Below, in pieces: positions 45,541 through 64,000 of a DNA stretch of 64,000 nt. The stretch is from a bacterium (GTDB lineage Bacteria > JAAXHH01), in NCBI GenBank assembly GCA_965248395.1, contig OZ252103.1, forward strand, positions 233,396-297,395, written 5' to 3'. The stretch's first letter is position 1. Every line of letters begins with the position of its first letter. The notes under the pieces are model-generated. The model was given only the letters and a program-made list of their open reading frames with translations. It had not been told where the DNA came from and searched no databases. The position numbers were made by a program, and so were the translations under genes.

Positions 45541-45723
45541 TCTGCTCCTCGAGGGGTTCCTTAAGGGTTTCCGTTCCTTAGAGTCTGATGGGAAGTCAAT
45601 CGGTGAATGTAGAGACGCCACCGCGCATCTGTCAACCGCTTATGCGGAAACCGGGGCGGCGTTGACAGGATATACCGCGCATCCTACATTGAACCTACTT
45701 GTCACCGGATCGTACTGTCCGTT

Positions 45724-45813
45724 AGGTCCGACCAGGCCGTCTCGTCCGCCTGGTCCGTTTAGTCCGACTGGCCCATCTCGACCGTCCAGTCATACCGGTC
45801 CGTCCCGTCACCG
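45724..45813. repeat. about 10 tandem degenerate 9-bp units (consensus nGTCCGnCT) in the divergent intergenic region
   Basis: ggtccgacc aggccgtct cgtccgcct ggtccgttt agtccgact ... read directly. They lie upstream of the ABC transporter signal-peptide start at 45842. Confidence 0.5.
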
Positions 45814-45841
45814 GAACCCGATTTCACCGAATCATCCAACC

Positions 45842-48202
45842 ATGATCCCGTTCCGAATCTTCCTCCTGCTCGGCATGTTCATGTCGTACCCGGCCGTTGC
45901 CGGAGCGCAGGCTGATCCGGCCGTTGCCGGAGCGCAGGACCAGCCCCCCGTACGCGTCGAAATGCCGATTTTCGAGGGCGGCCAGGGCCTCGAATTTTTC
46001 TTCGAAGCCGCCCGGACCTACGAACAGGAGCATGATGGCGTACAAATCGACCTTTACGGCGATCCCCGAATACACGACAAGGTGCGGGTGCGCATCCTGG
46101 AACGGTCGTTCCCCGAGGTCACCAACGCCCGCCTGAACTACTGGGCGCTCATCCGGAACGGCGACCTGCTTCCGCTGGACGAGTTCCTCGACCAGCCCAG
46201 TTGGGAGAGCGACGGCACCTGGCGCGAATCCTTCCTTCCCGGGACCCTGTCCCAGTACACCCATGAAGGCCAGACCTACGGCATTCCCCTGATGGCCTCG
46301 GCTTACGCCGTGTGGTACAATAAGAACCTCTTCGAAGAACACGGCTGGCAACCGGCGACCACTTGGGAGGAGTTCCTGGCACTATGCGAACAAATCAGGG
46401 CCGCCGATATGTGGCCGCTGGCCTTCCAGGGCCGGTACCCGGGGTACGTGCAGGCCGTGATCGACCACGCGTACTATCACCTTGCCGGGCCGCAACGATA
46501 CACCGACCAGAAGAACCTGCTGACCGGCAGCTTCGACAATCCCGAATTCATCGAGTCCCTCTCCCTCGCGCAGCGGATCGCGCTGAATTACTTCCAGCCG
46601 GGCGCGATGGGGATGAGCCATACGGAGTCCCAGCTCGAGTTCTTCCTGGGCCGCACGGCCATGATTTTCTGCGGTTCCTGGCTCAAGAGCGAGATGCTAG
46701 GCAAGATACCGGACGATTTCCGCCTGGGCTCCTTCAACATCCCGATCGCGCCTGGCGGAAAGGCGGATCCCTCGGCCGTCTATGGGGGTTCCGGGTACTA
46801 TTTCGTCATGAAGGAAAGCGACCACCCGCGGGAAGGGATCGAATTCCTTCGGTTCATGACCTCCCGGCGCATGGCGGGTCGGTTCAGCCGTATGCGCGAT
46901 ATCCCCGTGGCCGTGGCCGGCGTATCCGAGGATAACCTGTCAGACGACATGGCGGACCTGGCGGCCATGCTGAAGAATGCGGCCGTTACCTACGGCACAC
47001 CGCCCGGGGAAGGATATCCGGCCATGACACAGTACTGGACCGACGCCCGGTTCCGGGTCATCACCGGCCAGACTACGCCGGAAGAAGCCGCCAGGGAACT
47101 GGAAGCAAACGCGGCCGTGGTACGGCGCCAGACCCTGTCCCCCGACGAGATCAACATCCGGCATGTATGGAAGCCCTCTCTGCTGATCGGTCTCATGGCC
47201 CTGGCCGTGATCTACTGGTCGGCCACCACCTACAAGCGCTACCGGGACCGGCGCCGCGCGGGCGCTACCCATGGAACCGGCCTTCCTTTCCTGCACAGGA
47301 CCGACCGGATCATCCTCATCGCGCCTGCCCTTCTGCTGTATTCGGTGTTCGTGATCATCCCGAGCGCAAAATCGTTTCTATGGAGCCTGAACGAATGGGA
47401 TGGGCTGACCGAGATGCGGTTCACGGGCCTGCTGAACTTTGGCCGGCTGCTTTTCGAAAGCGACGGGTTCTGGATCGCGCTGAACAACAACCTTTTCATC
47501 ATGTTCGTAATTCCGCTGTTCGTCATCCCCCTCTCTCTCTTCCTGGCCGTCTGCATCAGCCGCGAGATCCGGGGATCGAAGTTCTTCCGCATCGCCTTCT
47601 TCTTTCCCAACATCCTGGGGGCCGTCGCGGCGACGCTGCTCTGGATGCACCTCTACAACCCCCAGGGCGGTCCGATCAACGCCGCGCTGGTGGCGATGGG
47701 CGAGATACTCACGGCGGTCGGCATGGCCGGTCTGGGGAGTTTGTTGCTCGCCATGGAGGGATTCGCCTGGCTTTCCCAGTCCAACCTGTACTGGGCGCTG
47801 ATCCCCATGTCCATCTGGGGCGCCTGCGGTTTCAACATGATCCTCTTCCTGGCAGCCATGGAGAGCATTCCCCAGAGCCTCTACGAAGCGGCGGACATCG
47901 ACGGCGCCTCTTCGTGGAGACAGTTCTGGACCATCACCCTGCCGCTGATCTGGGAAGTGCTGTCCATCTCCATCGTATTCATGGTCATCGGCGGGATGAA
48001 GGCCTTCGAGGCCATATGGCTGCTGACCAACCAGTCTCCGACCACGCAGGTGCACGTCATCGGCACGCTCATGGTCCAGGACATGTTCACCGAGTTCAAA
48101 ATCGGCGAGGCCACGGCCATCGCGGTACTGCTGTTCATCATGGTCTTCTTCGGCACGGCCGCCACGCTGCGGCTCATGAGAAGGGAAACGGTGGAATTCT
48201 AA
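45842..48202 (+). CDS. ABC transporter: extracellular solute-binding protein (CUT1/sugar type) fused in-frame to a MalF/UgpA-like permease
   Basis: A signal peptide (MIPFRIFLLLGMFMSYPAVAGAQA), then an SBP domain, then six TM helices and an EAA-like loop, all in one frame with no stop. The track ORF starts further upstream at 45452, but the signal peptide argues for 45842. Confidence 0.65.
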   Translation: MIPFRIFLLLGMFMSYPAVAGAQADPAVAGAQDQPPVRVEMPIFEGGQGLEFFFEAARTYEQEHDGVQIDLYGDPRIHDKVRVRILERSFPEVTNARLNYWALIRNGDLLPLDEFLDQPSWESDGTWRESFLPGTLSQYTHEGQTYGIPLMASAYAVWYNKNLFEEHGWQPATTWEEFLALCEQIRAADMWPLAFQGRYPGYVQAVIDHAYYHLAGPQRYTDQKNLLTGSFDNPEFIESLSLAQRIALNYFQPGAMGMSHTESQLEFFLGRTAMIFCGSWLKSEMLGKIPDDFRLGSFNIPIAPGGKADPSAVYGGSGYYFVMKESDHPREGIEFLRFMTSRRMAGRFSRMRDIPVAVAGVSEDNLSDDMADLAAMLKNAAVTYGTPPGEGYPAMTQYWTDARFRVITGQTTPEEAARELEANAAVVRRQTLSPDEINIRHVWKPSLLIGLMALAVIYWSATTYKRYRDRRRAGATHGTGLPFLHRTDRIILIAPALLLYSVFVIIPSAKSFLWSLNEWDGLTEMRFTGLLNFGRLLFESDGFWIALNNNLFIMFVIPLFVIPLSLFLAVCISREIRGSKFFRIAFFFPNILGAVAATLLWMHLYNPQGGPINAALVAMGEILTAVGMAGLGSLLLAMEGFAWLSQSNLYWALIPMSIWGACGFNMILFLAAMESIPQSLYEAADIDGASSWRQFWTITLPLIWEVLSISIVFMVIGGMKAFEAIWLLTNQSPTTQVHVIGTLMVQDMFTEFKIGEATAIAVLLFIMVFFGTAATLRLMRRETVEF

Positions 48203-49586: not shown

Positions 49587-50384
49587 TCAACCCCCGGAAA
49601 CGTAGCCCAATCGATCCCGGGAGTGTTCGATGTCCACCCAGCGGTGCGGTCCGTCGGTCACGGCGTAACACACCTCGTACACTGGGTTTTCCGTGGCTTT
49701 CAAAGCCAGTTCGATGATCTGCGTGATATCCGCCTGGCTGCACCAGACCGATCTCAGAAAGGGCTTGGTGGCCTCGTTCTGCTTGTTGACCCAGCCGATG
49801 CGCAGGCAGACGACGGACAGGTCGTGGGCGTCGTGGTAGGTCCGGCATATGCCCTCGCCCCATATCTTGCTGGCCGAATAGGGTTCCGTGGGCCTCGGCG
49901 GGTCGGTGACCTTGACGATCGGCATGGGGTCGGGCAACCCCTCGAGGCGGCCGTCCTTCAGGGACACGTAAGGTTCGTCGAACTGGCCGTAGCCCCAACT
50001 CGCCATGACGGAACTCGCGTAGATCATCCTCTTGATGCCCGACTCGCGGCAGACCTCAAGCACGTTGTAGGTCCCCACGATATTGCTATTCTGTATCGCT
50101 TCGAAAGGCGCGCCGGGGTCGGGTACTGCGCCGAGATGGACCACCGCGTCCATGCCGGAAAGGGCCTCGGCCACGGCGTCCCGGTCGGTCAGATCCGCGA
50201 GAAAGAAGCGATCATCGGGAATCCGCATGAGCGCCTCGTCATCAATACGGTCCGATGAGGCTTTACGCCGGCCGCTGCCATAGACATCGTATTCATCCTT
50301 CGCACTCAGATGGCGATAGGTCAGATTGCCGATCAATCCGTGCGCTCCGGTCACGTGCACCTTCAGTGGTCTTCCTTCGCTCAT
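49587..50384 (-). CDS. NAD-dependent epimerase/dehydratase (SDR family)
   Basis: VTGAHGLIGNL is the Rossmann GxxGxxG motif, and YSASK is the catalytic YxxxK. Confidence 0.75.
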   Translation of the reverse strand: MSEGRPLKVHVTGAHGLIGNLTYRHLSAKDEYDVYGSGRRKASSDRIDDEALMRIPDDRFFLADLTDRDAVAEALSGMDAVVHLGAVPDPGAPFEAIQNSNIVGTYNVLEVCRESGIKRMIYASSVMASWGYGQFDEPYVSLKDGRLEGLPDPMPIVKVTDPPRPTEPYSASKIWGEGICRTYHDAHDLSVVCLRIGWVNKQNEATKPFLRSVWCSQADITQIIELALKATENPVYEVCYAVTDGPHRWVDIEHSRDRLGYVSGG

Positions 50385-50464
50385 TGCTTCCTCCGGTTAA
50401 CTTCCGTGAATCCTTTGTACCTCCACGCGCAGTTCAGATTACGTGGAACGCGGACTGCATTTGC

Positions 50465-52096
50465 TCAGGCCTCGTCCATGAAAGGATAACACCAGTCCGT
50501 CGGCGGAACCATGGTTTCCTTGATCGTCCGGGCGCTCATCCACCGCAGCAGGTTCATCGGGCTGCCCGCCTTGTCGTTCGTCCCAGACGCCCGCGCCCCG
50601 CCGAAGGGCTGCTGTCCCACGACGGCGCCGGTGGGCTTGTCGTTGATATAGAAATTGCCGGCCGCGTTGCGCAGGAAGTCCGATATGCGGACGATGGCCT
50701 CGCGGTCCCGGGCGAATACGGCGCCGGTCAAGGCATATGGCGAGGTGTCGTCGCACAGCGCGAGGGTCTCGTCCAGCCGCTCGTCGTCGTAAACGTATAT
50801 CGTCAGTACGGGTCCGAAGATCTCTTCTTCCATGGTCCTGAACCGTGGGTTCGACGTCACGATGGTCGTGGGTTCGACAAACCAGCCCCGCTCCCGGTCG
50901 CACCCGCCCCCGGTGATGATCTCGGCATCGTCCGCCGACCGGGCGTATTCGATGTATTCGGCGATCCGGTCGAAGGACGCCTCGTCGATCACGGCCGCCA
51001 TGAAGTTAGTGAAGTCTTCCGGATCGCCCACCCGGATCTTCGCGACTTCCGCGGTGAACCGCTCCCTAAAGATCGGCCACAGGGAACTGGGCACGTACAT
51101 CCGGGAGGCCGCGGAACACTTCTGCCCCTGGTATTCGAAGGCGCCGCGGATCGCCGCTGCGACGAGGGCTTCTACGTCCGCCGAAGCGTGGACGAAGATG
51201 AAATCCTTGCCGCCCGTCTCGCCCACGATGCGGGGGTAGTACTTCATGCGCGCCAGGTTTCCGGCCACGCTGCGGTACATCTGCTGAAACGTGGATGTAG
51301 AACCCGTGAAGTGGATGCCAGCCAGGTCGGGGCTTTTCAGCACCGGATCGCCCACCTCGCCGCCGGAGCCGGGGATGAAGTTGATCACGCCGGGAGGCAG
51401 TCCGGCCTCCTGCAGCAACCGCATGACGTGCCAGGCCGAGTAGACAGCCGTGGATGCCGGTTTCCAGAGTACCGAACAGCCGGTGAGGGCCGGCGCCGTC
51501 GGCAGGTTGCCGCTGATGGCGGTGAAATTGAAGGGGGTTACGGCGAAGACGAATCCCTCCAGGGCCCGGTACTCGACGCGGTTCCAGACACCCGGGGAGG
51601 AGGCCGGCTGGTCGCTCATCAACTGCGCAAGGTAAGAGACGTTGAACCGCCAGAAATCGATCAGTTCGCAGGCCGCATCGATTTCGGCCTGGAATACCGT
51701 CTTGGACTGTCCCAGCATGGTCGCGGTGTTGACCGTCTGGCGCCAGGGTCCGGCGAGGAGATCGGCCGCCTTCATGATAACGGACGCGCGGTGCTCCCAG
51801 GGCATGTCCGCCCACGTCTTGCCGGCCTCGAGAGCCGCGTCGATCGCCATGCGAACTTCGGTCTCGCCCGCCTTGTGGTACACACCCAGGTCGAGGGCGT
51901 GGTCGTGGGGAGCGCGGAGTGGTGCGGTGCGCCCCGTCCTCACCTCCCGGCCGCCGATGATCAACGGGATATCGACGGGCGTTGATTTCATCTGTTGAAG
52001 CGTCGCCTTGACGGCCGCTCGTTCAGCCGATCCGGGCGCATAGTCCAGGACCGGTTCGTTGTAGGGGTGAGGCGGATTGAAGCGTGCGTTGGCCAT
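50465..52096 (-). CDS. pruA: 1-pyrroline-5-carboxylate (L-glutamate gamma-semialdehyde) dehydrogenase
   Basis: ALDH superfamily with the catalytic Cys (GQKCSAASR) and Glu (IVGETGGKD). The PruA/RocA-type N-terminus is MANARFNPPHPYNEPVLDYAPGS. Confidence 0.8.
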   Translation of the reverse strand: MANARFNPPHPYNEPVLDYAPGSAERAAVKATLQQMKSTPVDIPLIIGGREVRTGRTAPLRAPHDHALDLGVYHKAGETEVRMAIDAALEAGKTWADMPWEHRASVIMKAADLLAGPWRQTVNTATMLGQSKTVFQAEIDAACELIDFWRFNVSYLAQLMSDQPASSPGVWNRVEYRALEGFVFAVTPFNFTAISGNLPTAPALTGCSVLWKPASTAVYSAWHVMRLLQEAGLPPGVINFIPGSGGEVGDPVLKSPDLAGIHFTGSTSTFQQMYRSVAGNLARMKYYPRIVGETGGKDFIFVHASADVEALVAAAIRGAFEYQGQKCSAASRMYVPSSLWPIFRERFTAEVAKIRVGDPEDFTNFMAAVIDEASFDRIAEYIEYARSADDAEIITGGGCDRERGWFVEPTTIVTSNPRFRTMEEEIFGPVLTIYVYDDERLDETLALCDDTSPYALTGAVFARDREAIVRISDFLRNAAGNFYINDKPTGAVVGQQPFGGARASGTNDKAGSPMNLLRWMSARTIKETMVPPTDWCYPFMDEA

Positions 52097-52357
52097 GTCG
52101 CATATGTACCCGGCGAGGGGCCGTGATGTCAACAGTTTTCGGACCGCAGACTGTGCTGGCGATTCGTTCTCCGAATGCCGGAAAACCGGCCTTCCGCCGT
52201 GAAACCGAATCATCACGTGCCAGCCCATTTTACCCTTGCCAGAGCGGCCGGGGATATGAGATATTGGAGGTATTCAGGAATAGGAACGCACGATTCAAAG
52301 ACATGCAGGCTGTCGCGGCAGGACGGGACAGCCGCCACCCGTACCGGGGGTAGGATC

Positions 52358-53437
52358 ATGAGCACCAAACAGGAACACGGCATCAAGGCGGTAAACCAGG
52401 AATACACGCAATTTGACCAGGTGAAGAAGGAGCAGACCTACAACCTGGCCGAAGGGGCGGAGGGGGAAGCGTTCGACGAGGAAACACAGATCCGGACCTG
52501 CGACATTGGCCAGTTCCTCCACGGAGGCCCAGAGGGCAAGGCGCGTTTCGCCCGCGAGATCGGCGAGGCCATGGAAGGTATCGGCTTCGTGATCCTCGAG
52601 GGACACGAAATACCGGCCAGCCTTTACGTCGAAGCCGAGCAAAAGGTGGCCGAATTCTTCACGGCCACGCCCTTAACCGACAAGATGAAATACCAGGCCG
52701 AGCGCTTCGGTTCGGTCAACCAGGGGTATTTCCCCATCAAGCAGACCAGCCGAATGCATCCCGATCTCGTCGAAGGCTGGGTCTTCTGCCGCCGGGCCTT
52801 CAACCTGGGTGAAAACCCGGATTACCGCGAGACGGACTTCTGGCCCGCCGCCGGGTACGAGCCCTTCTTTCGGGAGATCATACGAAGCCACGAAAAATTG
52901 ATCCTGCCCCTCATGCAGAGCATCCTGACCTATCTCGGCTGCGACACGACACTTTACGACGATAAACTCACCCGGACGAACTTCGGCTTCCGGCTAAACT
53001 ACTACCCGCCCATTACCGAGGAAGACGACGCGTCCGGCGCGGGACGCATGCTGGGTCATGAAGACGTCGACCTGTTCACCATCCTCCCCTCTCACGGGGT
53101 AGACGGGTTGCAGGTGCTGAACCGGGAGAACATGAAGTGGATCCGCCTCAATCCCCCGGAGGGCAGCATCATCATCAACACGGGCGACTACATGCAGCGG
53201 ATCACCAACGACCGCCTCCCCTCCACCACGCACCGGGTCAGCAAGCCGCTCGACGCCAGTCTCTTCGATTCGGCGCGCATCAGCATACCCATGGCCGTCT
53301 ACGTCTGGGAGGAGGAGATGCTCGAGGTGCTGCCCAACACGGGTGAACCGAAGTACGAACCCATCTCCGCGGTCCAGTTCCATACCCGGACCACGAGCAA
53401 GTACTACGGCGACGACTATGCCGTGGACGACGATTGA
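52358..53437 (+). CDS. 2OG-Fe(II) oxygenase, isopenicillin-N-synthase-like family
   Basis: An N-terminal DIOX_N-like region (GFVILEGHEIP) and the HxD...H triad (GHEDVDLF ... TTHRV). Confidence 0.7.
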   Translation: MSTKQEHGIKAVNQEYTQFDQVKKEQTYNLAEGAEGEAFDEETQIRTCDIGQFLHGGPEGKARFAREIGEAMEGIGFVILEGHEIPASLYVEAEQKVAEFFTATPLTDKMKYQAERFGSVNQGYFPIKQTSRMHPDLVEGWVFCRRAFNLGENPDYRETDFWPAAGYEPFFREIIRSHEKLILPLMQSILTYLGCDTTLYDDKLTRTNFGFRLNYYPPITEEDDASGAGRMLGHEDVDLFTILPSHGVDGLQVLNRENMKWIRLNPPEGSIIINTGDYMQRITNDRLPSTTHRVSKPLDASLFDSARISIPMAVYVWEEEMLEVLPNTGEPKYEPISAVQFHTRTTSKYYGDDYAVDDD

Positions 53438-53463
53438 GACCTTAGCCTGAGAAAGGGCGACGC

Positions 53464-54237
53464 ATGACACCCCAGGAACGCTACCTTTTCGACCTGCAGG
53501 GCTATATCACCGTCCCGGACGCGCTGGACGCCAGGCTGCTCGCCGAATTGAACCGGCTCCTCGATGAGAAAATCGCCCAGGAGATGGACCCCGGCGCGAC
53601 CACACACCGGTTCTCCTTCACGCTGCTCGACTGGGGACTCGCATACCGGGAACTGATCGACAATCCGCGCATCTTGCCGTACCTGGAGCAACTGGTCAAT
53701 CCCAAGTTCCGGCTGGACCACGACTACGCCGATATCATTCGCCGGGACGACGGCCCCATCGGCACGACGCTCCACGGCGGCGCCATCCCCTTCGACCCCC
53801 TCTATTCCTACACCTGCGTCAACCAGGAGATCCGGTGCGGCCTGACCGTGGTCGCATACAACCTGAAGGACGTGAATCCCGGTGACGGCGGCTTCGGCTG
53901 CGTGCCCGGCAGCCACAAGAGCAACTTCAGGTTTCCCGACGAGTGGCGCAACCTGAAGACCGATCAGCCCTTCGTCCGTGCCGTCACAGGAAAGGCGGGG
54001 ACCGCGATTATCTTCACCGAGGCGCTGACCCACGGTACGATGCCCTGGCACGGTGACGAACGCCGAACCGTCTTCTACAAGTATTCGCCCAACTCGGTGT
54101 CCTGGTACGCCCATTACTACGACGCGGACTGGTACGTCGACCTGACGGACCGGCAGCGACAGATCCTCGAGGCTCCCAACGCAAGATACGGGAATCGCGA
54201 GCGGAGCCGACGCGGGATCGGGGTCGGGATGGAGTGA
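53464..54237 (+). CDS. phytanoyl-CoA dioxygenase (PhyH) family Fe(II)/2OG oxygenase
   Basis: LFDLQGYITVPDAL at the N-terminus, LHGGAIPFD and a distal His (LTHGTMPWHG). Confidence 0.7.
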   Translation: MTPQERYLFDLQGYITVPDALDARLLAELNRLLDEKIAQEMDPGATTHRFSFTLLDWGLAYRELIDNPRILPYLEQLVNPKFRLDHDYADIIRRDDGPIGTTLHGGAIPFDPLYSYTCVNQEIRCGLTVVAYNLKDVNPGDGGFGCVPGSHKSNFRFPDEWRNLKTDQPFVRAVTGKAGTAIIFTEALTHGTMPWHGDERRTVFYKYSPNSVSWYAHYYDADWYVDLTDRQRQILEAPNARYGNRERSRRGIGVGME

Positions 54238-54321
54238 AGGCTTAGAATGCCGGCTTCTTATTATCGAATTCTAGACTGTTTCCTACCTGCAACAATACCA
54301 ATTTCGCGTAGTAACTGACAA

Positions 54322-56856
54322 ATGGCCCTGAAGAAGTCCCAACTATACTCCTCAATCTGGCAAAGTTGTGATGAACTTCGCGGTGGCATGGACGCCTCCC
54401 AGTATAAGGATTACGTCCTTACGCTGCTGTTCATGAAGTACGTCTCGGACAAGGCGGCCAAAGACCCGAATATGCTCATCGAAGTGCCCGAGGGCGGGAG
54501 TTTCGCCGATATCGTAAAGCTGGTCGGCGATAAAGAGATCGGCGATAAGATAAACACGGTGATCGCCGCGCTCGCGGAAGCAAACGATCTTGGGGACGTC
54601 ATCGACCAGGCGGATTTCAACGACGAAAAGAAGCTGGGGTCCGGCAAGGAGATGCAGGATAGGCTCTCCAGGCTCGTCGCCATATTCGACGATCTCGATT
54701 TCGGAGCGAACCGGACCGATGGGGATGATCTCCTCGGCGACGCCTACGAGTATCTCATGATGCACTTCGCCACGGAATCCGGCAAGAGCAAGGGACAGTT
54801 CTACACGCCAGCGGAAGTGTCACGAGTCATGGCAAAGGTGGTCGGTATCGGTCCGGACACACGTCAGGATCAGACCATCTACGACCCGACCTGTGGATCC
54901 GGATCACTGCTCCTCAAAGCTGCTGACGAAGCGCCTATTGGCATTACCATCTATGGGCAGGAGAAGGACATCGCCACATGGTCGCTTGCGCGAATGAACC
55001 TGATACTGCACGACCATCCAACGGCATTTATCTGGCGTGAAAACACGCTGGCTGCTCCATACTTCACGGACCAACACGGTATCAAGACCTTCGACTTCGC
55101 AGTCGCCAACCCACCATTCTCCGACAAAGCCTGGTCCAACGGCCTCGATCCGGCTAATGACGAGTTTGGACGTTTCGCCTACGGCATCCCACCTGCCAGG
55201 AACGGCGACTACGCATTCCTTCTTCACCTCATTGCGTCGCTTAACAGCAGGGGCAAAGGCGCGATCATACTGCCGCACGGCGTACTGTTCCGGGGCAACA
55301 GGGAAGCGGACATCCGCAGAAACCTCATCCAACGAGGGTTCATCAAGGGTATCATCGGCCTGCCGTCCAACCTGTTCTACGGCACCGGTATCCCCGCCTG
55401 CATCCTGGTTTTGGACAAGGAAAACGCCCATGCGCGCGGAGGCATCTTCATGATTGACGCGAGCAAGGGCTTTCGCAAGGACGGTAACAAGAACCGCCTG
55501 CGCGAACTGGACCTCCACCGGATCGTCGACGTGTTCAACCGGCAGACCGAGTTGCCGCGTTATTCTCGCCTGGTACCGATCGCCGAGATCGCTAGTCCCG
55601 CTAACGACTACAACCTCAGCATCCCGCGCTACGTCGATTCCAGCGAGCCGGAAGACCTGCACGACCTCGACGCCCATTTGCACGGCGGTATTCCCGACCG
55701 TGATATCGATGCGCTCGACACCTATTGGGATGTCTTCCCGTCGTTGCGCCGAACGTTATTCGTCGGTAACGGCCGCGCGGGATACAGCGAGAGTCTCGTC
55801 GAGATCGGACATGTACAGACCGCCATTCTCGATAACGAGGAATTCAAATCGTACGAAGCCCGAGTTGCGGCCATTCTCAACGATTGGTGCAAGGCACTCG
55901 AGCCAACTTTGAAGGGTCTCAATACTGATGCCATCCCCAAGGAAATCATTCGCACCCTTGCGGAGGGTCTGCTGGCGCGTTTCGCTGACCTGCCGCTGCT
56001 TGACCCGTACGACGTGTACCAGCGGTTGATGGACTATTGGGACGAAACGATGCAGGACGATGTGTACCTTATCGCCGCGGAAGGCTGGCAGGTAGGCCGC
56101 AACCTTCGTTCCTCCTATGACAAGGAAACACCGGATTTCACTATCAAGAAGGGCCGAAAGACTACCAAGTACGTTGGTGAACTAATCCCGCATTCTTTGG
56201 TTCTCGCAAGATTCTTCAAGAACGAACAGCAAGAACTGGAGCAACTCGAGGGGGAAGTTTCCGAATTGGCGGAACGTAAGGAGGAATTCGAAGAGGAACA
56301 TGGTGCCGATGAGGGCGCTCTCAACGGCCTTGAAGGGAAGAGTGGTATTACCAAGGGTAATATACAGCAGCGCGTCATAGAGTTAAAGGAAGCCATTCTA
56401 AAGACTTGTTCCGAAGGAACGCCGAAGCACAATCAGGCAAAGTCCATCAAGAAAACAACCTTTGGCGTTCATGATTGGACCAAGAACGTCCAAGACGAAG
56501 AAGGACTATTCAAGGAGTTGGATATTCTCTACGACTATCTCCAACTCATGGAAGATGAGAAGATCCGGAAGGATACATGCAAGCAGACACGGGACACGCT
56601 ACATACTTCGGTGATCCAGAAGTACGCCACGCTCAACGAAAACGAGATAAAGACACTTGTGGTCGAAGACAAATGGTTTGCCAACATTCGGATCGCCATT
56701 GAGGGCGAGGTGCAGAGCCTGACACTGCGGCTTGCCGGGCGCGTGACAGAACTGGAAGAACGCTATGCCTGTCCGTTGCCGGAGTTGGAGCGGGAGGTTG
56801 AGGTGTTTGGTGCCAAGGTCGAGGGGCACTTGAAACGTATAGAAATTTCGCTATGA
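54322..56856 (+). CDS. hsdM: type I restriction-modification system DNA methyltransferase subunit
   Basis: The HsdM_N region, the SAM motif (DPTCGSGSLL) and the N6-adenine catalytic motif NPPF. It has a long C-terminal coiled-coil-rich extension, and GC is lower than in upstream genes. Confidence 0.85.
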   Translation: MALKKSQLYSSIWQSCDELRGGMDASQYKDYVLTLLFMKYVSDKAAKDPNMLIEVPEGGSFADIVKLVGDKEIGDKINTVIAALAEANDLGDVIDQADFNDEKKLGSGKEMQDRLSRLVAIFDDLDFGANRTDGDDLLGDAYEYLMMHFATESGKSKGQFYTPAEVSRVMAKVVGIGPDTRQDQTIYDPTCGSGSLLLKAADEAPIGITIYGQEKDIATWSLARMNLILHDHPTAFIWRENTLAAPYFTDQHGIKTFDFAVANPPFSDKAWSNGLDPANDEFGRFAYGIPPARNGDYAFLLHLIASLNSRGKGAIILPHGVLFRGNREADIRRNLIQRGFIKGIIGLPSNLFYGTGIPACILVLDKENAHARGGIFMIDASKGFRKDGNKNRLRELDLHRIVDVFNRQTELPRYSRLVPIAEIASPANDYNLSIPRYVDSSEPEDLHDLDAHLHGGIPDRDIDALDTYWDVFPSLRRTLFVGNGRAGYSESLVEIGHVQTAILDNEEFKSYEARVAAILNDWCKALEPTLKGLNTDAIPKEIIRTLAEGLLARFADLPLLDPYDVYQRLMDYWDETMQDDVYLIAAEGWQVGRNLRSSYDKETPDFTIKKGRKTTKYVGELIPHSLVLARFFKNEQQELEQLEGEVSELAERKEEFEEEHGADEGALNGLEGKSGITKGNIQQRVIELKEAILKTCSEGTPKHNQAKSIKKTTFGVHDWTKNVQDEEGLFKELDILYDYLQLMEDEKIRKDTCKQTRDTLHTSVIQKYATLNENEIKTLVVEDKWFANIRIAIEGEVQSLTLRLAGRVTELEERYACPLPELEREVEVFGAKVEGHLKRIEISL

Positions 56857-56965
56857 GAGAGGGTTTTGCACTCTTAGTTGGGTGTGGATATTTCTATTAA
56901 GAAGTACGATATGATAATCGGCCATCTGTTGACAACCTGAAGGTGTGTACGTTGGAGGAACAGAG

Positions 56966-57013
56966 ATGGCAGAACAGATAACCGTTTCGGTTGATCCCGA
57001 AGTAACCAGATGA
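56966..57013 (+). pseudogene. remnant of a ribbon-helix-helix-type antitoxin gene (in-frame TGA after 15 codons, then interrupted by the IS)
   Basis: A GGAGG Shine-Dalgarno then ATG 56966 gives MAEQITVSVDPEVTR-stop, which looks like an RHH N-terminus. The paired toxin remnant is at 58524-58568. Confidence 0.3.
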
Positions 57014-57101
57014 TACCGTTCGGCTTCTTATAATGAGCGTCGCAAGCTGGATTTGCTTGTCATTTTGCGTTTGCTTGGTGCGAATCCGGGAAATCGCTCA
57101 G

Positions 57102-58434
57102 GGGTCTGTCACGGATTTTGTGTAACTGACAGTTTCATGTGATGGGCACTCTGTCTTCGTACATGATGATGAACTGGTTGATTGCGGCTGTCCAGTGGAC
57201 AAGGGGCCGGGTCCACCTTCGGGACAGATTGAGCAGGGCCAGATAGAGCAGTTTCCTGGCCGCCTCGTCCGTGGGGAAAGCGCCTCTGGTCTTGATGATC
57301 TTGCGCAGGCCCCGGTTCATGGATTCGATGGCATTCGTAGTGTAGATGACCTTCCTGATCTCCTGTGGGAAGGCGAAGAACGGGGTCAGATGGTCCCAGT
57401 GTCTGCGCCATAGCCGGCTGATCGTGGGATATTGCTTATCCCAGTGTTCGGCAAAGCGATAAAGCGCGGCCTCAGCCTGCTCCAAGGTAGCGGCCTGGTA
57501 TATCGCCCGGAGATCCTTGGCCACCTGCTTACGGTCCTTCCAGGAGACGTAGGTCAGGCTGTTACGCACCATGTGGACGATGCAGAGCTGCACCTGGGCC
57601 TTGGGGTACACCGTCTCTATGGCCTGGGGGAAGCCGGTGAGGCCGTCGCAACAGGCGATGAAGATATCGGCAACGCCCCGGTTCTTCAGTTCGGTCAGTA
57701 CGTGGAGCCAGAACTTTGCCCCTTCGTTCTGCTCGATCCAGAGCCCCAGGAGTTCCTTGTCGCCGCGCAGGTTAACGCCCAGGGCCAGGTAGACCGCCTT
57801 GTTCCGTACGCTGCCGCTATCACGTATCTTGACGAACAGGGCATCCAGGAACAGGATCGGGTAGATCTCATCCAGGGGCCGCGACTGCCAGGCCAGGGCC
57901 TCGTCGGTCACGGCGTCGGTGATCCGCGAGACCAATTCGGGCGAGATGGACACCCCGTAGAGGTCTTCGATATGGCCCTGGATATCCCGGGTGCTCATGC
58001 CCCTTGCGTACATGGAGATGATCTTGTCGTCGAAGTCGGGCCAACGCGTCTGGTACTTGCGGATCAACTTCGGATCGAAGCTGCCTTCGCGGTCCCGGGG
58101 GATCTCTACCGGCAGAGCGCCCTTGTCGTCCTTGAGCGTCTTGGTGGTCTTGCCGTTGCGACTGTTGCCGCGGTTCCTGCCATCGGGGGCATGCTTCTCG
58201 TAGCCGAGATGATCGGTGAGCTCGGCTTCCAGGATCCGCTCGGCCATGCGCTTCTTCATGCGCTTGAGCAGGCCGTCTTCGCCGAAAAGGTCCTCGGCGT
58301 CCACCCCGTCTTCCATAAGTTCATCGAGAAGACGGTCGATCTTACCTGGGGGTTTTCTTTCTCTGGCCATAGCACTTCCTCCTTTTGAGCAAGATACAGG
58401 CTATTGCCAGTTACACAAAACATGTTACAGACTC
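57102..58434 (-). mobile_element. IS256-family insertion sequence, copy 1 (1333 bp) with 8-bp target-site duplication TCGCTCAG
   Basis: Identical to copy 2 at an offset of 2481 bp. Imperfect ~30-bp terminal inverted repeats (GGGTCTGTCACGGATTTTGTGTAACTGACAG vs GAGTCTGTAACATGTTTTGTGTAACTGGCAA). The direct repeat TCGCTCAG sits at 57094-57101 and 58435-58442. Confidence 0.85.
57135..58370 (-). CDS. IS256-family (Mutator-type) transposase
   Basis: 411 aa with the Mutator/IS256 signature Q-x-C-x-x-H-x-x-R-N (VQLCIVHMVRNS) and DDE-type spacing. Confidence 0.85.
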   Translation of the reverse strand: MARERKPPGKIDRLLDELMEDGVDAEDLFGEDGLLKRMKKRMAERILEAELTDHLGYEKHAPDGRNRGNSRNGKTTKTLKDDKGALPVEIPRDREGSFDPKLIRKYQTRWPDFDDKIISMYARGMSTRDIQGHIEDLYGVSISPELVSRITDAVTDEALAWQSRPLDEIYPILFLDALFVKIRDSGSVRNKAVYLALGVNLRGDKELLGLWIEQNEGAKFWLHVLTELKNRGVADIFIACCDGLTGFPQAIETVYPKAQVQLCIVHMVRNSLTYVSWKDRKQVAKDLRAIYQAATLEQAEAALYRFAEHWDKQYPTISRLWRRHWDHLTPFFAFPQEIRKVIYTTNAIESMNRGLRKIIKTRGAFPTDEAARKLLYLALLNLSRRWTRPLVHWTAAINQFIIMYEDRVPIT

Positions 58435-58523
58435 TCGCTCAGAGACACGGTGCAGGAAATCAGTCGTAGCACGCAACAGCGTAGTCTGACTCCAGAGATA
58501 CTGCAATCCATCCTGGACGAAGC

Positions 58524-58568
58524 ATGACTCGCGTCGTCTTCGATACGAACGTCACTATCAGCGCCTAA
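58524..58568 (+). pseudogene. remnant of a PIN-domain (VapC-like) toxin gene truncated by a premature TAA
   Basis: MTRVVFDTNVTISA-stop is a canonical PIN N-terminus. Its ATG overlaps the upstream stop as ATGA, as in vapBC pairs. Confidence 0.3.
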
Positions 58569-58711
58569 CTCTTCACCGATTCCGTGCCAGGGCGGGCGTT
58601 CATCTGGGCTTTGGGTCACGAAACGATTGAAGATAGATACTGTGCGCAGGAATAGGGTATTACTTGCTCAACTATCGGAACTGCGTTACTGCCTTTCGAA
58701 ACTAGGCGAAT

Positions 58712-59582
58712 GTGATGAATACGAAACGGGAGACTGTGAATAACGCCCCTGGTGATGGATGCCCTGCATTACCTGCCTGTACGCACCCGCAGACTATGCC
58801 CGCGCCGTTGCACGGCACGCAGGCAGACAGGTTGGATGAGGTGCCAGTGGGTTACAAGCGGACTGAGGTGGGGGTGATTCCAGAAGATTGGGACGTAGTG
58901 CTACTCGGCAATCTCTTTATATTCAAGAACGGTTTAAACAAGGCCAAAGGGTTTTTCGGTACGGGAACACCCATAGTCAATTACATGGACGTTTTTAAAA
59001 CCCCCGGGCTTAGAATGGACGATCTATCTGGACGAGTAAACCTGAGTCACGAGGAGATCAAAAACTTCGAGGTCCGGTTGGGTGATGTGTTCTTTACACG
59101 CACATCGGAGACAGTTGAAGACATTGGCGTGGCATCCGTTATGCTCGAAGAACCTTGTGATACCGTATTCAGTGGGTTCGTTCTTCGTGCGCGGGCTCGA
59201 GATGATCGACTTGACGACCACTATAAGCAGTACTGCTTTGGCTCCAGAGCAATCAGGTCCCAGATCGTATCAAATGCGACATACACGACGCGCGCATTGA
59301 CCAATGGTCGATCGCTGTCAGTTGTGTGGGCCACTGTACCCCCGAAACCTGAACAACGTGCTATAGCCGAGGCATTGTCGGATGTAGATGGGTTGCTCGT
59401 TGCTTTGGACGCGCTGATCGCAAAGAAACGGGCCGTAAAGTTGGCTGCAATGGAGCAACTTCTCACTGGAAAGATTCGTCTGCCGGGGTTCAGGGGGAAG
59501 TGGGAGACAACAACGCTTGGAGATATCGCAGAGATATACAATGGAGCAACGCCAAACACTCAGATTAGTGCCTACTGGAACG
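58712..59582 (+). pseudogene. hsdS: type I R-M specificity subunit hsdS, 5' part (target-recognition domain 1), disrupted by the IS insertion
   Basis: EVPVGYKRTEVGVIPEDWDVVLLGNL is the HsdS TRD N-terminal motif. The frame runs into the IS at 59583. After removing the IS and one TSD copy, the frame continues perfectly into 60924-61447 (..ISAYWNG|PIPWCTPTDIT..). Confidence 0.75.
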
Positions 59583-60915
59583 GGGTCTGTCACGGATTTT
59601 GTGTAACTGACAGTTTCATGTGATGGGCACTCTGTCTTCGTACATGATGATGAACTGGTTGATTGCGGCTGTCCAGTGGACAAGGGGCCGGGTCCACCTT
59701 CGGGACAGATTGAGCAGGGCCAGATAGAGCAGTTTCCTGGCCGCCTCGTCCGTGGGGAAAGCGCCTCTGGTCTTGATGATCTTGCGCAGGCCCCGGTTCA
59801 TGGATTCGATGGCATTCGTAGTGTAGATGACCTTCCTGATCTCCTGTGGGAAGGCGAAGAACGGGGTCAGATGGTCCCAGTGTCTGCGCCATAGCCGGCT
59901 GATCGTGGGATATTGCTTATCCCAGTGTTCGGCAAAGCGATAAAGCGCGGCCTCAGCCTGCTCCAAGGTAGCGGCCTGGTATATCGCCCGGAGATCCTTG
60001 GCCACCTGCTTACGGTCCTTCCAGGAGACGTAGGTCAGGCTGTTACGCACCATGTGGACGATGCAGAGCTGCACCTGGGCCTTGGGGTACACCGTCTCTA
60101 TGGCCTGGGGGAAGCCGGTGAGGCCGTCGCAACAGGCGATGAAGATATCGGCAACGCCCCGGTTCTTCAGTTCGGTCAGTACGTGGAGCCAGAACTTTGC
60201 CCCTTCGTTCTGCTCGATCCAGAGCCCCAGGAGTTCCTTGTCGCCGCGCAGGTTAACGCCCAGGGCCAGGTAGACCGCCTTGTTCCGTACGCTGCCGCTA
60301 TCACGTATCTTGACGAACAGGGCATCCAGGAACAGGATCGGGTAGATCTCATCCAGGGGCCGCGACTGCCAGGCCAGGGCCTCGTCGGTCACGGCGTCGG
60401 TGATCCGCGAGACCAATTCGGGCGAGATGGACACCCCGTAGAGGTCTTCGATATGGCCCTGGATATCCCGGGTGCTCATGCCCCTTGCGTACATGGAGAT
60501 GATCTTGTCGTCGAAGTCGGGCCAACGCGTCTGGTACTTGCGGATCAACTTCGGATCGAAGCTGCCTTCGCGGTCCCGGGGGATCTCTACCGGCAGAGCG
60601 CCCTTGTCGTCCTTGAGCGTCTTGGTGGTCTTGCCGTTGCGACTGTTGCCGCGGTTCCTGCCATCGGGGGCATGCTTCTCGTAGCCGAGATGATCGGTGA
60701 GCTCGGCTTCCAGGATCCGCTCGGCCATGCGCTTCTTCATGCGCTTGAGCAGGCCGTCTTCGCCGAAAAGGTCCTCGGCGTCCACCCCGTCTTCCATAAG
60801 TTCATCGAGAAGACGGTCGATCTTACCTGGGGGTTTTCTTTCTCTGGCCATAGCACTTCCTCCTTTTGAGCAAGATACAGGCTATTGCCAGTTACACAAA
60901 ACATGTTACAGACTC
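59583..60915 (-). mobile_element. IS256-family insertion sequence, copy 2 (1333 bp) inserted in hsdS, 8-bp target-site duplication CTGGAACG
   Basis: Identical to copy 1. The direct repeat CTGGAACG sits at 59575-59582 and 60916-60923. Confidence 0.85.
59616..60851 (-). CDS. IS256-family (Mutator-type) transposase (identical to the copy at 57135-58370)
   Basis: An identical 411-aa product. Confidence 0.85.
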   Translation of the reverse strand: MARERKPPGKIDRLLDELMEDGVDAEDLFGEDGLLKRMKKRMAERILEAELTDHLGYEKHAPDGRNRGNSRNGKTTKTLKDDKGALPVEIPRDREGSFDPKLIRKYQTRWPDFDDKIISMYARGMSTRDIQGHIEDLYGVSISPELVSRITDAVTDEALAWQSRPLDEIYPILFLDALFVKIRDSGSVRNKAVYLALGVNLRGDKELLGLWIEQNEGAKFWLHVLTELKNRGVADIFIACCDGLTGFPQAIETVYPKAQVQLCIVHMVRNSLTYVSWKDRKQVAKDLRAIYQAATLEQAEAALYRFAEHWDKQYPTISRLWRRHWDHLTPFFAFPQEIRKVIYTTNAIESMNRGLRKIIKTRGAFPTDEAARKLLYLALLNLSRRWTRPLVHWTAAINQFIIMYEDRVPIT

Positions 60916-60923
60916 CTGGAACG

Positions 60924-61447
60924 GGCCGATTCCGTGGTGTACACCGACCGACATCACGGCTAAGCCGGGGAAGTACCTCCTTCATACTGAGCGGAGCGTC
61001 ACTGCGGCGGGATTGGCCAGTTGCGCAGCACGACTGCTTCCTGTCGCCACTCTTCTCTTGTGCAGCCGTGCAACCATCGGGGAGATTAAGATCGTTGTAT
61101 CACCGGTATGCACTAACCAAGGCTTCAAGTCAATCGTCTGTAAAACCGATGTGTCGAACGAGTTTCTGTATTACCTGCTTTTGACATTTAAGCCGCAACT
61201 GATAGAGCGGGCCATCGGGTCAACTTTTCTTGAAATCAGTAAGTCTGATGTGGCATCACTTACATTACGTATCCCTACTCATACGGAACAGCACGCCATC
61301 GCCAACATTCTCTCCGACATGGACGACGAGATAACCGCACTGGAACATCGCCGGGACAAGACACAAGCAGTCAAGCAGGGTATGATACAGCAGCTTCTCA
61401 CCGGACGGGTACGATTGGTCGAATCAGAGAGAACTGCATATGCCTGA
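60924..61447 (+). pseudogene. hsdS: hsdS 3' part (target-recognition domain 2 and C-terminal conserved helix)
   Basis: PIPWCTPTDIT (the GxIPWxxxxDl HsdS motif) and the C-terminal conserved region EQHAIANILSDMDDEITALEHRRDKTQAVKQGMIQQLLTG. Confidence 0.7.
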
Positions 61448-64000
61448 CATTGAACATGAGATTCGTACTTGGCTTCACCAACAACAGGATTGGCTTCAGG
61501 AAGCGGTCGAGAAACTGCTCGCTACGGGCAGTTTGGACGATAGCGACATCCAAGCCATCACCGATCGTCTCAAGACCACGTCCGGGCAAAAGGTAACCAC
61601 TCACCGCACATTCGAAGGTATTGGATCTACCTCCGCTTCCTCGACTGCAGTACACCTCCTAGAAATCGGCGACATCTGCGGCATTGAGAATCTATGTCCG
61701 CACAGTCCCCTAAAGTTCGGAACTGGAAATCTTGCGGTGATCTACGGTCCCAACGGATCGGGAAAAACCGGTTACGTTCGCATCATCAAGCGAGCGTGTG
61801 GGAAACCCCACGCGACAGAGCTCAAGTCCAACGTCTTCGAATTTCGGCCTGCAAGGCAACTATGTCAGATTCGCTACAGTTTGGCGGGAAGCGAGCAATT
61901 GATTACATGGCAGGCAAACTCCACTCCGATACAGGACCTCCGAGCCGTCGATGTTTTTGACGCTGATGCTGCCACTTTTTATATCAGCCAAGAGAAAGCA
62001 ATCTCCTACACACCACCGACCATCAGTTTGTTCGAGGCGTTGGCATCTGTGTGCGACAGAATTAAAAAGAGACTTCATTTTGAACGGGATCGTCTGGTCA
62101 GCACACTCCCCTCTTTGCCGCCAGAATACCGTGCTACTAAAGCTGGTAAAGTTTATGCTGCGTTGAGATACGATATTAGCAAGCAAGAGATCCAAAGTCT
62201 AACACAATGGGGTCAGGATAACGAAGAAGAACTCAAGAAACTGACTGAACGTCTAAATGCGGACGACCCGGCAAAGTCCGCGCAATTAAAGCGTAAAACA
62301 AAGAGCCAACTTGACCGACTCGGTGCAGAATTGAAACACGCCGCATTCGCCGTTGGACCTCAACAGTTGGAAACCATTCGGAATTCTCGTAGGAAGGCAC
62401 ATCAGAAACGTAAGATAGCCACTGAAGTGGCTGACGCTCAGTTAGGTAGTGCTAAATTAGACGGCATTGGGACGGAAACGTGGAATGCACTATGGAAGGC
62501 AGCACGCCTTTATTCACAGACAGCCTATCCAGAATTTGAATTCCCCGTTACAGAGAACGGTGCCCTATGCGTTTTGTGTCATCAGGAATTGGCTCAAGAA
62601 GCACAGAATCGTTTGCAAGAATTTGAAGCATTTGTCCAAGGGGTAGTGGAGACTGAAGCTAAGTCGGCTGAAGAAGCCTACAGCAAAGCACTAGCGAGGT
62701 TGCCGACGCAGTGGGATGACGAGGAAACCCGTACGAGATGTGAGGTCGCCGGGCTGACCGATGAGGATTGGACCGAGAAATTAGGAGCCTTTTGGTCCAA
62801 ATTAGGCAAGGCCCGCGATGATCTCCTAAACGGCGAGGCAGATGCAGAGGCTGTCGCAATAGAGCCACCTGATGAACTTTTGACCGAAGTAGCATGCCGT
62901 GCCGAATCGTTGGAGCACGAAGCCCTGCAAAATGATGAGGATGCGAAGAACTTCGATCGGGAAAGGGCGATTCAAGAAAGGCTGAATCTGGAGGCTCTGC
63001 GCTGGACAGCACAGCAAGCTACTGCAATCCACTGCGATATTGCACGTCTAAAGAATATGAGGAAGTATGAGAAATGGGAGCAATTGGCGAACTCACGAAA
63101 GGTATCCCTTGAGGCTAGCCATGTCGCCGAGAAGGTAATCACGCAGGTGTACGTGGATCGGTTCAACCAGGAACTCAAGATGTTGGGTGCATCGCGAATA
63201 AAGGTTGAGCTAACCAAAACCCAAACGAAAAAAGGGCAAGCACTACATGGGCTTCGCCTGAAGGGTGTCAAACTGACAACAGAGAACGCACCTGAACAAA
63301 TTCTGAGCGACGGAGAGCGGCGCGTCGTTTCTCTGGCGGCGTTTTTGGCCGATGTGGCAGAGAAGCCTCACGCGGCACCATTCATTTTCGACGATTCGAT
63401 ATCGTCGCTGGATCAAGACTTCGAGTGGCAGGTGGCGACTCGCCTTGCACAACTAGCGCAGAGCCGTCAGGTCCTGGTGTTCACACATCGGCTTTCTCTA
63501 TATGGTGCGATGGAGGACGCCGCAAAGAAAGTTGGCCAAGATTGGAAGAATAGAAACCTCCAGCAATGCTGCATAGAATTTTTTTCAGGAACCGCAGGGC
63601 ACCCGGCGGATGATTCTGTTTGGAATGTCAACACCAAGACGGGAAACAATATCCTTTTGGCGCGTCTTGACGAGGCTAAAAATGCCGGTAAAACGGGTGG
63701 TGCCAGTGCTTACCGGATCCAAGCGCAGGCGATTTGCACTGAATTTCGAAAGCTTCTGGAGCGAACAGTCGAAGATGACCTACTGAACAAAATAGTACGA
63801 CGCCACCGAAGGAGTATCACGACCGACCATAGACTTAAACCACTTGCAAGTATAATCCCTAGTGACTGCAGGTTTATAGATGATCTTATGACTAAGTACT
63901 CAGGCTATGTGCACAGTCAGTCAGAGGAAGCGCCGATTCCACTACCTGATGAGGCAGAACTGCGGAAAGACATGGAGTCGCTGAAGAATTGGCGCGAGGA
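61441..64000 (+). CDS. RloC-like anticodon nuclease (ABC-ATPase head with coiled-coil CxxC zinc-hook insert plus C-terminal PrrC-type nuclease region); 3' end beyond window
   Basis: ATG 61441 overlaps the hsdS stop (ATGCCTGA). The frame is open for more than 850 codons to the window end. It is absent from the ORF track because there is no in-window stop. Walker A VIYGPNGSGKTG, a long coiled-coil-like segment with CVLC at its centre, the signature-like LSDGERR, Walker B IFDDSISSLD, and a C-terminal R-x3-E (FRKLLER) followed by His residues. Confidence 0.65.

Follow-up and report, generated by a model that had tools for sequence, protein, structure and literature searches.

Two insertions of an IS256-family element in a type I restriction–modification operon, one of them splitting hsdS

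What has happened to a type I restriction–modification (R-M) operon in which the same mobile element stands twice, once within the gene for the specificity subunit? This question is raised by the stretch of DNA analyzed here, which comprises 64,000 nucleotides of a bacterial genome (positions 233,396 to 297,395 of contig OZ252103.1, assembly GCA_965248395.1). It is referred to as the 64-kb window, and all positions count from its first base. The operon has the order hsdM, a probable relic toxin–antitoxin pair, hsdS, and an rloC-like gene. The locus is best explained, and very probably so, by two independent insertions of an IS256-family insertion sequence (IS), of which copy 2 split hsdS, with the operon context being altered. 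The element, its flanks, and the two parts of hsdS are as follows.

57102-58434, minus strand: IS copy 1, IS256 family, 1333 bp, with terminal inverted repeats at 57102-57131 and 58405-58434
57135-58370, minus strand: transposase of copy 1, 411 amino acids
59583-60915, minus strand: IS copy 2, IS256 family, 1333 bp, identical to copy 1 (100%) and oriented like it
59616-60851, minus strand: transposase of copy 2, 411 amino acids, identical to the transposase of copy 1
57094-57101, no strand: left target-site duplication of copy 1, TCGCTCAG
58435-58442, no strand: right target-site duplication of copy 1, TCGCTCAG
59575-59582, no strand: left target-site duplication of copy 2, CTGGAACG
60916-60923, no strand: right target-site duplication of copy 2, CTGGAACG
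58715-59582, plus strand: 5' fragment of hsdS, encoding the N-terminal extension, the N-terminal target recognition domain (N-TRD), the central conserved helix, and the first 26 residues of the C-terminal target recognition domain (C-TRD)
60924-61447, plus strand: 3' fragment of hsdS, encoding the remaining C-TRD and the C-terminal conserved helix, with the stop codon TGA at 61445-61447

A repeat search in 54000-64000 gave a single long direct repeat with a spacing of 2481, and base-by-base extension of this repeat led to an identical run of 1334 nucleotides (57101-58434 = 59582-60915). The IS proper measures 1333 bp and not 1334 bp, because the G with which the run begins still belongs to the duplications, each of which ends with it. 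The transposase open reading frame (ORF) fills 1236 of the 1333 bp and leaves 33 and 64 nucleotides at the IS ends. A first-pass annotation of this DNA had described two 1333-bp copies at an offset of 2481 with identical transposases of 411 residues, and every coordinate and number of that description holds. The same is true for the imperfect terminal inverted repeats of about 30 bp: the ends, aligned as inverted repeats (GGGTCTGTCACGGATTTTGTGTAACTG... versus GAGTCTGTAACATGTTTTGTGTAACTG...), match at 24/30 positions, with 22/27 and 29/39 for a shorter and a longer alignment. A 13-nucleotide core of these repeats, TTTTGTGTAACTG, occurs four times in the 64-kb window, where 0.02 occurrences are expected, with one at each IS end; as the core is present only at these four known ends, there is no third copy in the window. 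Both copies are flanked by perfect target duplications of 8 bp that differ from each other, and the probability of a chance match of 8 flanking nucleotides is 4^-8, or about 1.5e-5, per copy. The transposase matches Pfam Transposase_mut (PF00872) over positions 13-377 of the 379 profile positions with an E-value of 1.3e-128, and the NCBIfam model of IS256 family transposases (NF033543) with 439.9 bits at a cut-off of 150. Elements of the IS256 family have about 1.2-1.5 kb, are filled by one transposase ORF, and transpose by a copy-out, paste-in route with a circular double-stranded intermediate. The element can thus be assigned to the IS256 family on the basis of its transposase type, its size, its single ORF, its imperfect repeats, and its 8-bp duplication. 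The identity of the two copies further shows that the IS is active now or was so very recently.

The consequence for hsdS can be read directly from the reading frames. The 5' frame continues into the IS, where a stop codon at 59621-59623 ends a product of 302 residues, the last 13 of which are IS-encoded; this product is annotated as such in the source genome (P0124). When copy 2 and one duplication are deleted in silico, a frame of 466 codons from stop to stop is restored, which gives 463 residues from the ATG at 58715, with a junction at which ..ISAYWNG is followed by PIPWCTPTDIT.. The restored HsdS matches Pfam Methylase_S, and it aligns with intact homologues (P0121, 80%; P0122, 75%; and others) without any gap across the junction, with both target recognition domains being homologous. 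The claims of the first-pass annotation that one copy cleanly splits hsdS and that its removal restores an in-frame HsdS of about 465 residues have therefore stood, the frame being exactly restorable. The two-domain architecture is present only after the in silico removal of copy 2, which interrupts the gene 26 residues into the C-TRD, with the central conserved helix being complete before the break. As the locus stands, a full-length two-domain HsdS cannot be made. We also noted an in-frame TTG at 60866, in the end of IS copy 2, that opens an ORF of 193 residues (60866-61447, plus strand). Its first 19 codons, of which the IS end contributes 17 and the right-hand duplication 2, are fused to the C-terminal HsdS fragment, which would probably not fold because the 26 residues that open the C-TRD are missing from it.

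Related genomes carry the same locus with empty sites. Close relatives of HsdM are found at 86-92% identity, and two of the loci, L062 and L063, were compared together with their genomic context. L062, whose HsdM is 92% identical, is colinear with the window minus copy 1 and one duplication, with 91.6% identity over 3363 nucleotides across the site, and it contains TCAATCAG once at site 1, where the window contains TCGCTCAG twice. L063, a metagenomic contig, aligns colinearly across both sites with the window from which the IS copies are removed, at a nucleotide identity of about 88-89%, and its synteny includes the upstream PhyH-like gene, hsdM, hsdS, and the downstream gene. There, the unoccupied targets are TCGCTCAG, present once at site 1, and TTGGAACG, present once at site 2. 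The view that each copy with its own 8-bp duplication represents a genuine transposition is thus borne out by the perfection of both duplications and by the empty sites in relatives. Very probably, an active IS256-family element has transposed twice, independently and recently, into this one operon, with copy 1 having entered the antitoxin-like gene between hsdM and hsdS, and copy 2 a position 26 codons into the C-TRD part of hsdS. With an opposite-strand gene in each, the 1.3-kb inserts would break the operon context of both hsdS fragments and of the rloC-like gene. Both hsdS and its downstream neighbor would be separated from the transcript of hsdM and would lose their translational coupling, and their expression may be reduced or altered. 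The 302-residue fragment would most likely not be made in useful amounts; less likely, it could homodimerize into a half-subunit whose specificity is new and palindromic. In addition, homologous recombination between the two direct repeats of 1333 bp would put the 5' half of hsdS at risk of deletion.

The gene hit by copy 1 deserves a closer look. The first-pass annotation had placed this copy in the hsdM–hsdS spacer, and it does lie between the two genes, but the region is not a mere spacer, as copy 1 is inserted inside an antitoxin-like pseudogene of 74 codons. The remains in this region are the following.

56966-57101, plus strand: 5' part of the antitoxin-like pseudogene (74-codon gene), recognized in a six-frame reading and cut by IS copy 1
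58443-58527, plus strand: 3' part of the antitoxin-like pseudogene, ending with ..DTVQEISRSTQQRSLTPEILQSILDEA and a stop codon
58524-58655, plus strand: putative N-terminal relic of a PIN-family toxin, MTRVVFDTNVTISA followed by a stop codon and LFTDSVPGRAF.., truncated and with stop codons

The gap between hsdM and hsdS amounts to about 500 bp in the window with the IS removed (56857-58711 minus IS copy 1), in L062 (L062:2680-3193), and in L063 (L063:4507-4919). In L063, the antitoxin-like gene is intact with 74 codons (MAEQITVSVDPEVAKRYRSAS...LTPEILQSILDEA; L063:4507-4731). L062 has a single nonsense codon in this gene that is independent of that in the window, where a TGA nonsense codon at 57011-57013 and a 4-nucleotide deletion near 57080 are found and where copy 1 interrupts the codons K-S-L-R. 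The antitoxin-like protein has no Pfam or NCBIfam family match, and homologues with 41% identity are encoded on cyanobacterial plasmids, directly upstream of and overlapping with genes for annotated PIN-family toxins of 140 residues. Directly behind the small gene, a decayed ORF that begins with MTR(V/I)VFDTNV.ISA.LF is present in the window as well as in L062 and L063; it is truncated in all three and leaves a putative toxin remnant of about 26-43 codons. The relic matches Pfam PIN_3 weakly (E 0.011, first 27 profile positions only), and over 24 residues it shares 46% identity with the N-terminal end of the PIN toxin annotated on the Geminocystis plasmid pGM3709_03. Because the homologues of the antitoxin-like protein precede PIN toxins and the toxin relic can be aligned, the hsdM–hsdS gap probably represents a decayed toxin–antitoxin module.

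Several points weigh against the interpretation of two independent insertions that disrupted a functional system. The window contains no hsdR and ends inside the rloC-like gene, and the prior system need not have been complete. One or both insertions may be present in only a part of the population behind the assembly, and either of them may have come first. The functional consequences are those that we infer, and truncated HsdS subunits can be active (PMC3874165). Furthermore, the plus strand has no site resembling an intrinsic terminator inside the IS, so that read-through from hsdM across both copies is possible. The first-pass annotation had expected a loss of both restriction and modification. 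The loss of the original bipartite recognition specificity can be inferred with confidence, but a total loss of restriction and modification, while plausible, is not assured, because the 302-residue fragment keeps the N-TRD and the central helix and thereby resembles active half-subunits.

This leads to the alternative that the system has been changed and not killed, either by dimerization of the 302-residue HsdS fragment to a half-enzyme that would methylate a new palindromic target together with HsdM (and restrict it together with HsdR), or by a reversible off-switch in which the IS is precisely excised at its 8-bp repeats. IS256 is known to excise reversibly in staphylococci, and this is the basis of the switch variant. 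The half-enzyme is suggested by the position of the break, which lies 26 residues into the C-TRD and thus spares the N-TRD and the whole central conserved helix, by the intact hsdM, and by the lack of a plus-strand terminator-like site within the IS. The make-up of the fragment matches that of three precedents (PMC3874165): in EcoDXXI, a Tn5 insertion in the C-TRD part of hsdS resulted in an active homodimeric half-subunit that recognizes a palindrome of the N-TRD half-site, the delta-50 truncation of EcoR124I is likewise an active homodimeric half-subunit with palindromic specificity, and in NgoAV, HsdS is truncated naturally. However, these precedents are type IC enzymes with unusually alike dimerization helices, and the enzyme described here may belong to another family. 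Copy 1 stands between hsdM and the hsdS fragment, which has lost its normal transcriptional context, and there is no convincing promoter: a scan of 56700-61700 gave 4 sites where 2.5 are expected, and neither the promoter nor the terminator counts exceeded the expectation from shuffled sequences. The 13 IS-encoded residues at its end may also destabilize the fragment. In view of these points, we regard an active half-enzyme or a reversible switch as unlikely. Rather doubtful is also the broader idea that a burst of the IS created a natural half-HsdS with a new palindromic specificity, or that it uncoupled an intact RloC-type suicide nuclease from the neighboring restriction complex. If true, such a half-HsdS would be a case of "macroevolution by transposition" caught in the wild, and the uncoupling would be a natural test of whether an R-M-embedded RloC needs its partner complex for silence.

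It is very improbable that the locus results from an assembly artefact, in which the assembler would have used one IS, from here or from another place in the genome, two times, with hsdS in reality being intact. Only 1148 bp separate the two copies, whose identity is 100%, and such repeats are a classic source of misassembly; the source is probably a metagenome-assembled genome, as its relatives are. However, each copy has its own perfect 8-bp duplication, with the target being single at the homologous place in a relative, and a misplaced repeat would neither generate duplications nor leave an exactly restorable frame. Moreover, the 1140 bp of DNA between the two copies are colinear with the locus of the relatives. 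An assembly duplication was rejected on the basis of this duplication pattern and colinearity. A composite transposon that arrived as one unit could be imagined from identical, directly oriented IS copies around a 1140-bp segment, but there is hardly any chance for this, as the duplication pattern refutes it (the outer flanks differ, with TCGCTCAG on the left and CTGGAACG on the right, and each copy has its own duplication) and as the DNA between the copies, which comprises the native 3' end of the putative toxin–antitoxin relic and the beginning of hsdS, is colinear with the loci L062 and L063.

Independent support for the IS boundaries in the two-insertion explanation comes from related elements. 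A pattern covering the two IS ends, scanned over one genome per species, matched 61 loci, most of them in a few metagenome-assembled chromosomes of 3.5-3.9 Mb. At 30 loci, full-length relatives with 88-97% nucleotide identity were found whose ends lie at the same positions, the closest being that in OZ245326.1 (96.8%). Perfect 8-bp duplications flank 25 of the 30 at these same ends, and one more has a duplication of 9 nucleotides; the duplications in related genomes thus independently fix the IS boundaries and the 8-bp rule. OZ253560.1 carries at least 13 full-length copies (at L002, L005, L007, L010, L021, L026, L027, L040, L046, L048, L051, L057, and L059), each of which is 94.224% identical to the IS of the window. 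This equal identity suggests a recent burst in that genome as well. At L010, an IS appears to have inserted into an IS, as there are four end matches and a copy split into 1127 and 210 nucleotides around a full copy. Together, these data indicate that the IS has multiplied in this lineage, of whose gene losses it is a likely driver. Among the IS relatives found, there was no copy of identical sequence outside the window. A collection of plasmids gave only distant matches to Rhizobium IS256-family elements (about 71% nucleotide identity over 36% of the element), and there was no match in E. coli genomes. The comparisons with plasmids, E. coli, and related genomes gave no name for the IS. The suggestion that it can serve as a useful strain marker holds, as related genomes carry a dozen or more copies. 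A second case of the IS in an orthologous hsd locus was not detected when three proteins of the hsd locus were compared by tblastn with the 61 IS-bearing loci. The closeness of the two copies need not carry any meaning: if a genome of 3.72 Mb has about 25 copies, a number suggested by OZ253560.1, about 0.4 pairs within 2.5 kb are expected by simple arithmetic, and the probability of such a pair is about 0.3. Were there only few copies in the genome, such as fewer than 5, the clustering would instead speak for hopping over short distances, for selection at this locus, or for an operon that, once hit, served as a neutral landing pad.

The gene downstream of hsdS begins with an ATG that overlaps the hsdS stop by 8 nucleotides, which speaks for coupling within the operon.

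61440-64000, plus strand: RloC-like ATPase of the ATP-binding cassette (ABC)/Rad50 type with a C-terminal R-x3-E-x50-H domain; the window cuts the gene after codon 853 of 864

The identical full-length protein of the source genome (P0241) has 864 residues. The best match was the PADLOC model PDC-S06 (PDLC04893; residues 1-853 versus 1-854 of 862, 1022 bits), and Pfam AAA_13 matched with 55.5 bits at a cut-off of 36. NCBIfam gave only generic ABC matches, a PDB sequence search only weak matches to SMC, Rad50, and ABC proteins, and for the C-terminal 177 residues there was no Pfam match even at E <= 10. Across 120 homologues, the ATPase motifs GPNGSGKT (Walker A), LSDGERR (signature), FIFDDSISSLD (Walker B/D-loop), and FTHR (switch His) are conserved, and invariant residues are C377 and C380 of a CxxC motif as well as the triad R770-x3-E774-x50-H825, which was assigned by pattern and not by alignment to an experimentally studied RloC. 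In an AlphaFold model with a mean pLDDT (predicted local distance difference test) of 81.9, a helical insert of about 390 residues interrupts the ATPase head, which is followed by a helical C-terminal domain; the insert comprises residues ~193-581, and a low-confidence apical loop (371-384) holds the CxxC motif. The best fold matches in the PDB were SMC and Rad50 heads with coiled coils, in a search dominated by the ATPase head. RloC has been defined by ABC motifs, a Rad50-like zinc-hook insert, an Arg-X3-Glu-X36-52-His motif, and a length of 658-897 residues (Davidov and Kaufmann; PMC2610378). RloC and PrrC are anticodon nucleases, and RloC is characterized by cleavage in the anticodon loop of tRNA with excision of the wobble nucleotide. 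Because every RloC feature that can be tested on a sequence was found, the label "RloC-like" given in the first-pass annotation is justified, and the protein is assigned to the RloC type with a predicted zinc hook and a predicted nuclease. The gene is full length and intact, and with 11 departures from conserved columns, as compared to 2-17 in relatives, it gives no sign of decay. An identity as PrrC was rejected, as the 864 residues with a Rad50-like insert of about 390 residues contrast with the about 400 residues of PrrC, whose ABC NTPase lacks a coiled-coil insert and which has a PrrC box and a region for the recognition of tRNA-Lys, and as the PADLOC model of PrrC matches only residues 648-697 (E 1.5e-4).

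The first-pass annotation had also argued from the view that nucleases of the PrrC/RloC type are held latent by their partner R-M complex. Silencing by a neighboring R-M complex is established for PrrC, whereas RloC is only rarely linked to R-M genes (8/73) and is governed by its own zinc hook and its DNA-dependent ATPase, with an R-M input being proposed but not shown (PMC2610378, PMC3458546). The latency argument therefore applies to PrrC but less to RloC, which is mainly self-regulated by its Rad50-like region. To regard the status of the rloC-like gene as an open question was fair, although this view rests on the PrrC paradigm. As to its expression, a sigma-70-like pair, AAGACA-17-TATGAT, is located at 61358-61386 on the plus strand, within the 3' fragment of hsdS and 54 nucleotides upstream of the rloC-like start; since the promoter scan was overall not above chance, this pair is only a lead. 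The slot after hsdS is variable. It is occupied by the 864-residue RloC-like ATPase in the window (61440-64000) and in L063 (6240-8834), and by a "Upx-like" protein of 1227 residues in L062 (4662-8345), despite the 92% identical HsdM. In both L062 and L063, a gene for an MmeI-type methyltransferase (981 residues) and a gene of 222 codons follow, and in L062 hsdR comes only after these.

At the other end of the operon, the methyltransferase gene is preserved.

54322-56856, plus strand: hsdM, 844 amino acids, long form, extended C-terminally by about 400 residues, intact

HsdM matches HsdM_N and N6_Mtase of Pfam, TIGR00497 (hsdM) of NCBIfam with 262 bits at a cut-off of 242.75, and, from end to end, the PADLOC model MTase_I (PDLC03027) with 1212 bits, and it is 100% identical to the database entry P0001. 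In L062, hsdR (HSDR_N, ResIII) lies farther downstream than the gene of the MmeI-type methyltransferase, with its start about 8 kb past the stop of hsdS. On the upstream side, L063 has a DUF1828 gene of 139 codons (L063:1437-1856) between the PhyH-like gene and hsdM, where the window has only 84 bp (54238-54321). In CBDBLQ010000002.1, a region (L056:1-4390) is syntenic with 49786-54192 of the window, with genes for an aldehyde dehydrogenase, a 2-oxoglutarate (2OG)-oxygenase, and the PhyH-like protein at 83-87% identity, and downstream of the PhyH-like gene (L056:4500-8000), there are unrelated genes, an IS3-type element, and fragments of the same IS, but no R-M island. This break in synteny places the boundary of the R-M island at about 54240-54320 of the window, at a spot that is variable in the lineage. 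The G+C content is about 0.60-0.63 in the housekeeping part and 0.50-0.57 across the R-M island (within 54000-64000), with 0.55 for hsdM, 0.50 for the rloC-like gene, and 0.59 for the IS, and the lower G+C content fits a horizontally acquired island. Farther upstream, an ORF of 916 codons (45452-48202, plus strand) combines a solute-binding-protein domain (SBP_bac_1) with the permease domain of an ABC transporter (BPD_transp_1), which is an unusual fusion unless the ORF call merged two genes. A search with Rfam found no RNA family in the whole 64-kb window.

In summary, the locus represents an ordinary, textbook-clean case of an IS-mediated disruption of a type I specificity gene. At the sequence level, nothing unexpected is seen, and what is added to the earlier annotation is the correction of the spacer to a probable toxin–antitoxin relic, the caveat of a half-HsdS, and the confirmation of the intact RloC-type gene. 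For annotation, it follows that hsdS is an IS-disrupted pseudogene, and that the ORFs of 302 and 193 residues are pieces of one gene. A locus in which the RloC-like gene is intact and the specificity subunit broken is a convenient natural genotype for studying the dependence of the nuclease on the neighboring restriction complex.

A comparison with known systems places these findings as follows. With the IS256 family, whose prototype is IS256 from Staphylococcus and Enterococcus, the element shares the single Mutator/DDE-type transposase gene in a 1.3-kb element, the imperfect inverted repeats of about 30 bp, the 8-bp duplication (8-9 bp in the family), and the occurrence of several copies per genome. 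With RloC from Geobacillus kaustophilus and Acinetobacter baylyi, the downstream protein shares the ABC motifs, the helical insert with the CxxC motif, the C-terminal triad, and the length; it differs in that its best database label is the uncharacterized candidate PDC-S06, in that its C-terminal domain has no Pfam match, and in that its nuclease activity is only predicted. Its gene follows hsdS and precedes the remaining genes of a type I locus, a position that it shares with prrC in the E. coli prr locus and with the rlo genes in the hsd loci of Campylobacter jejuni. The closest counterpart of the disruption itself is EcoDXXI hsdS::Tn5 (Meister et al. 1993, as described in PMC3874165), in which an element in the C-TRD part also leaves a fragment with the N-TRD and the central helix. 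For EcoDXXI and the delta-50 variant of EcoR124I, activity and a new palindromic specificity have been demonstrated, whereas for the fragment described here both would be predictions, and, in contrast to these cases, a second IS lies here between the hsdS fragment and hsdM.

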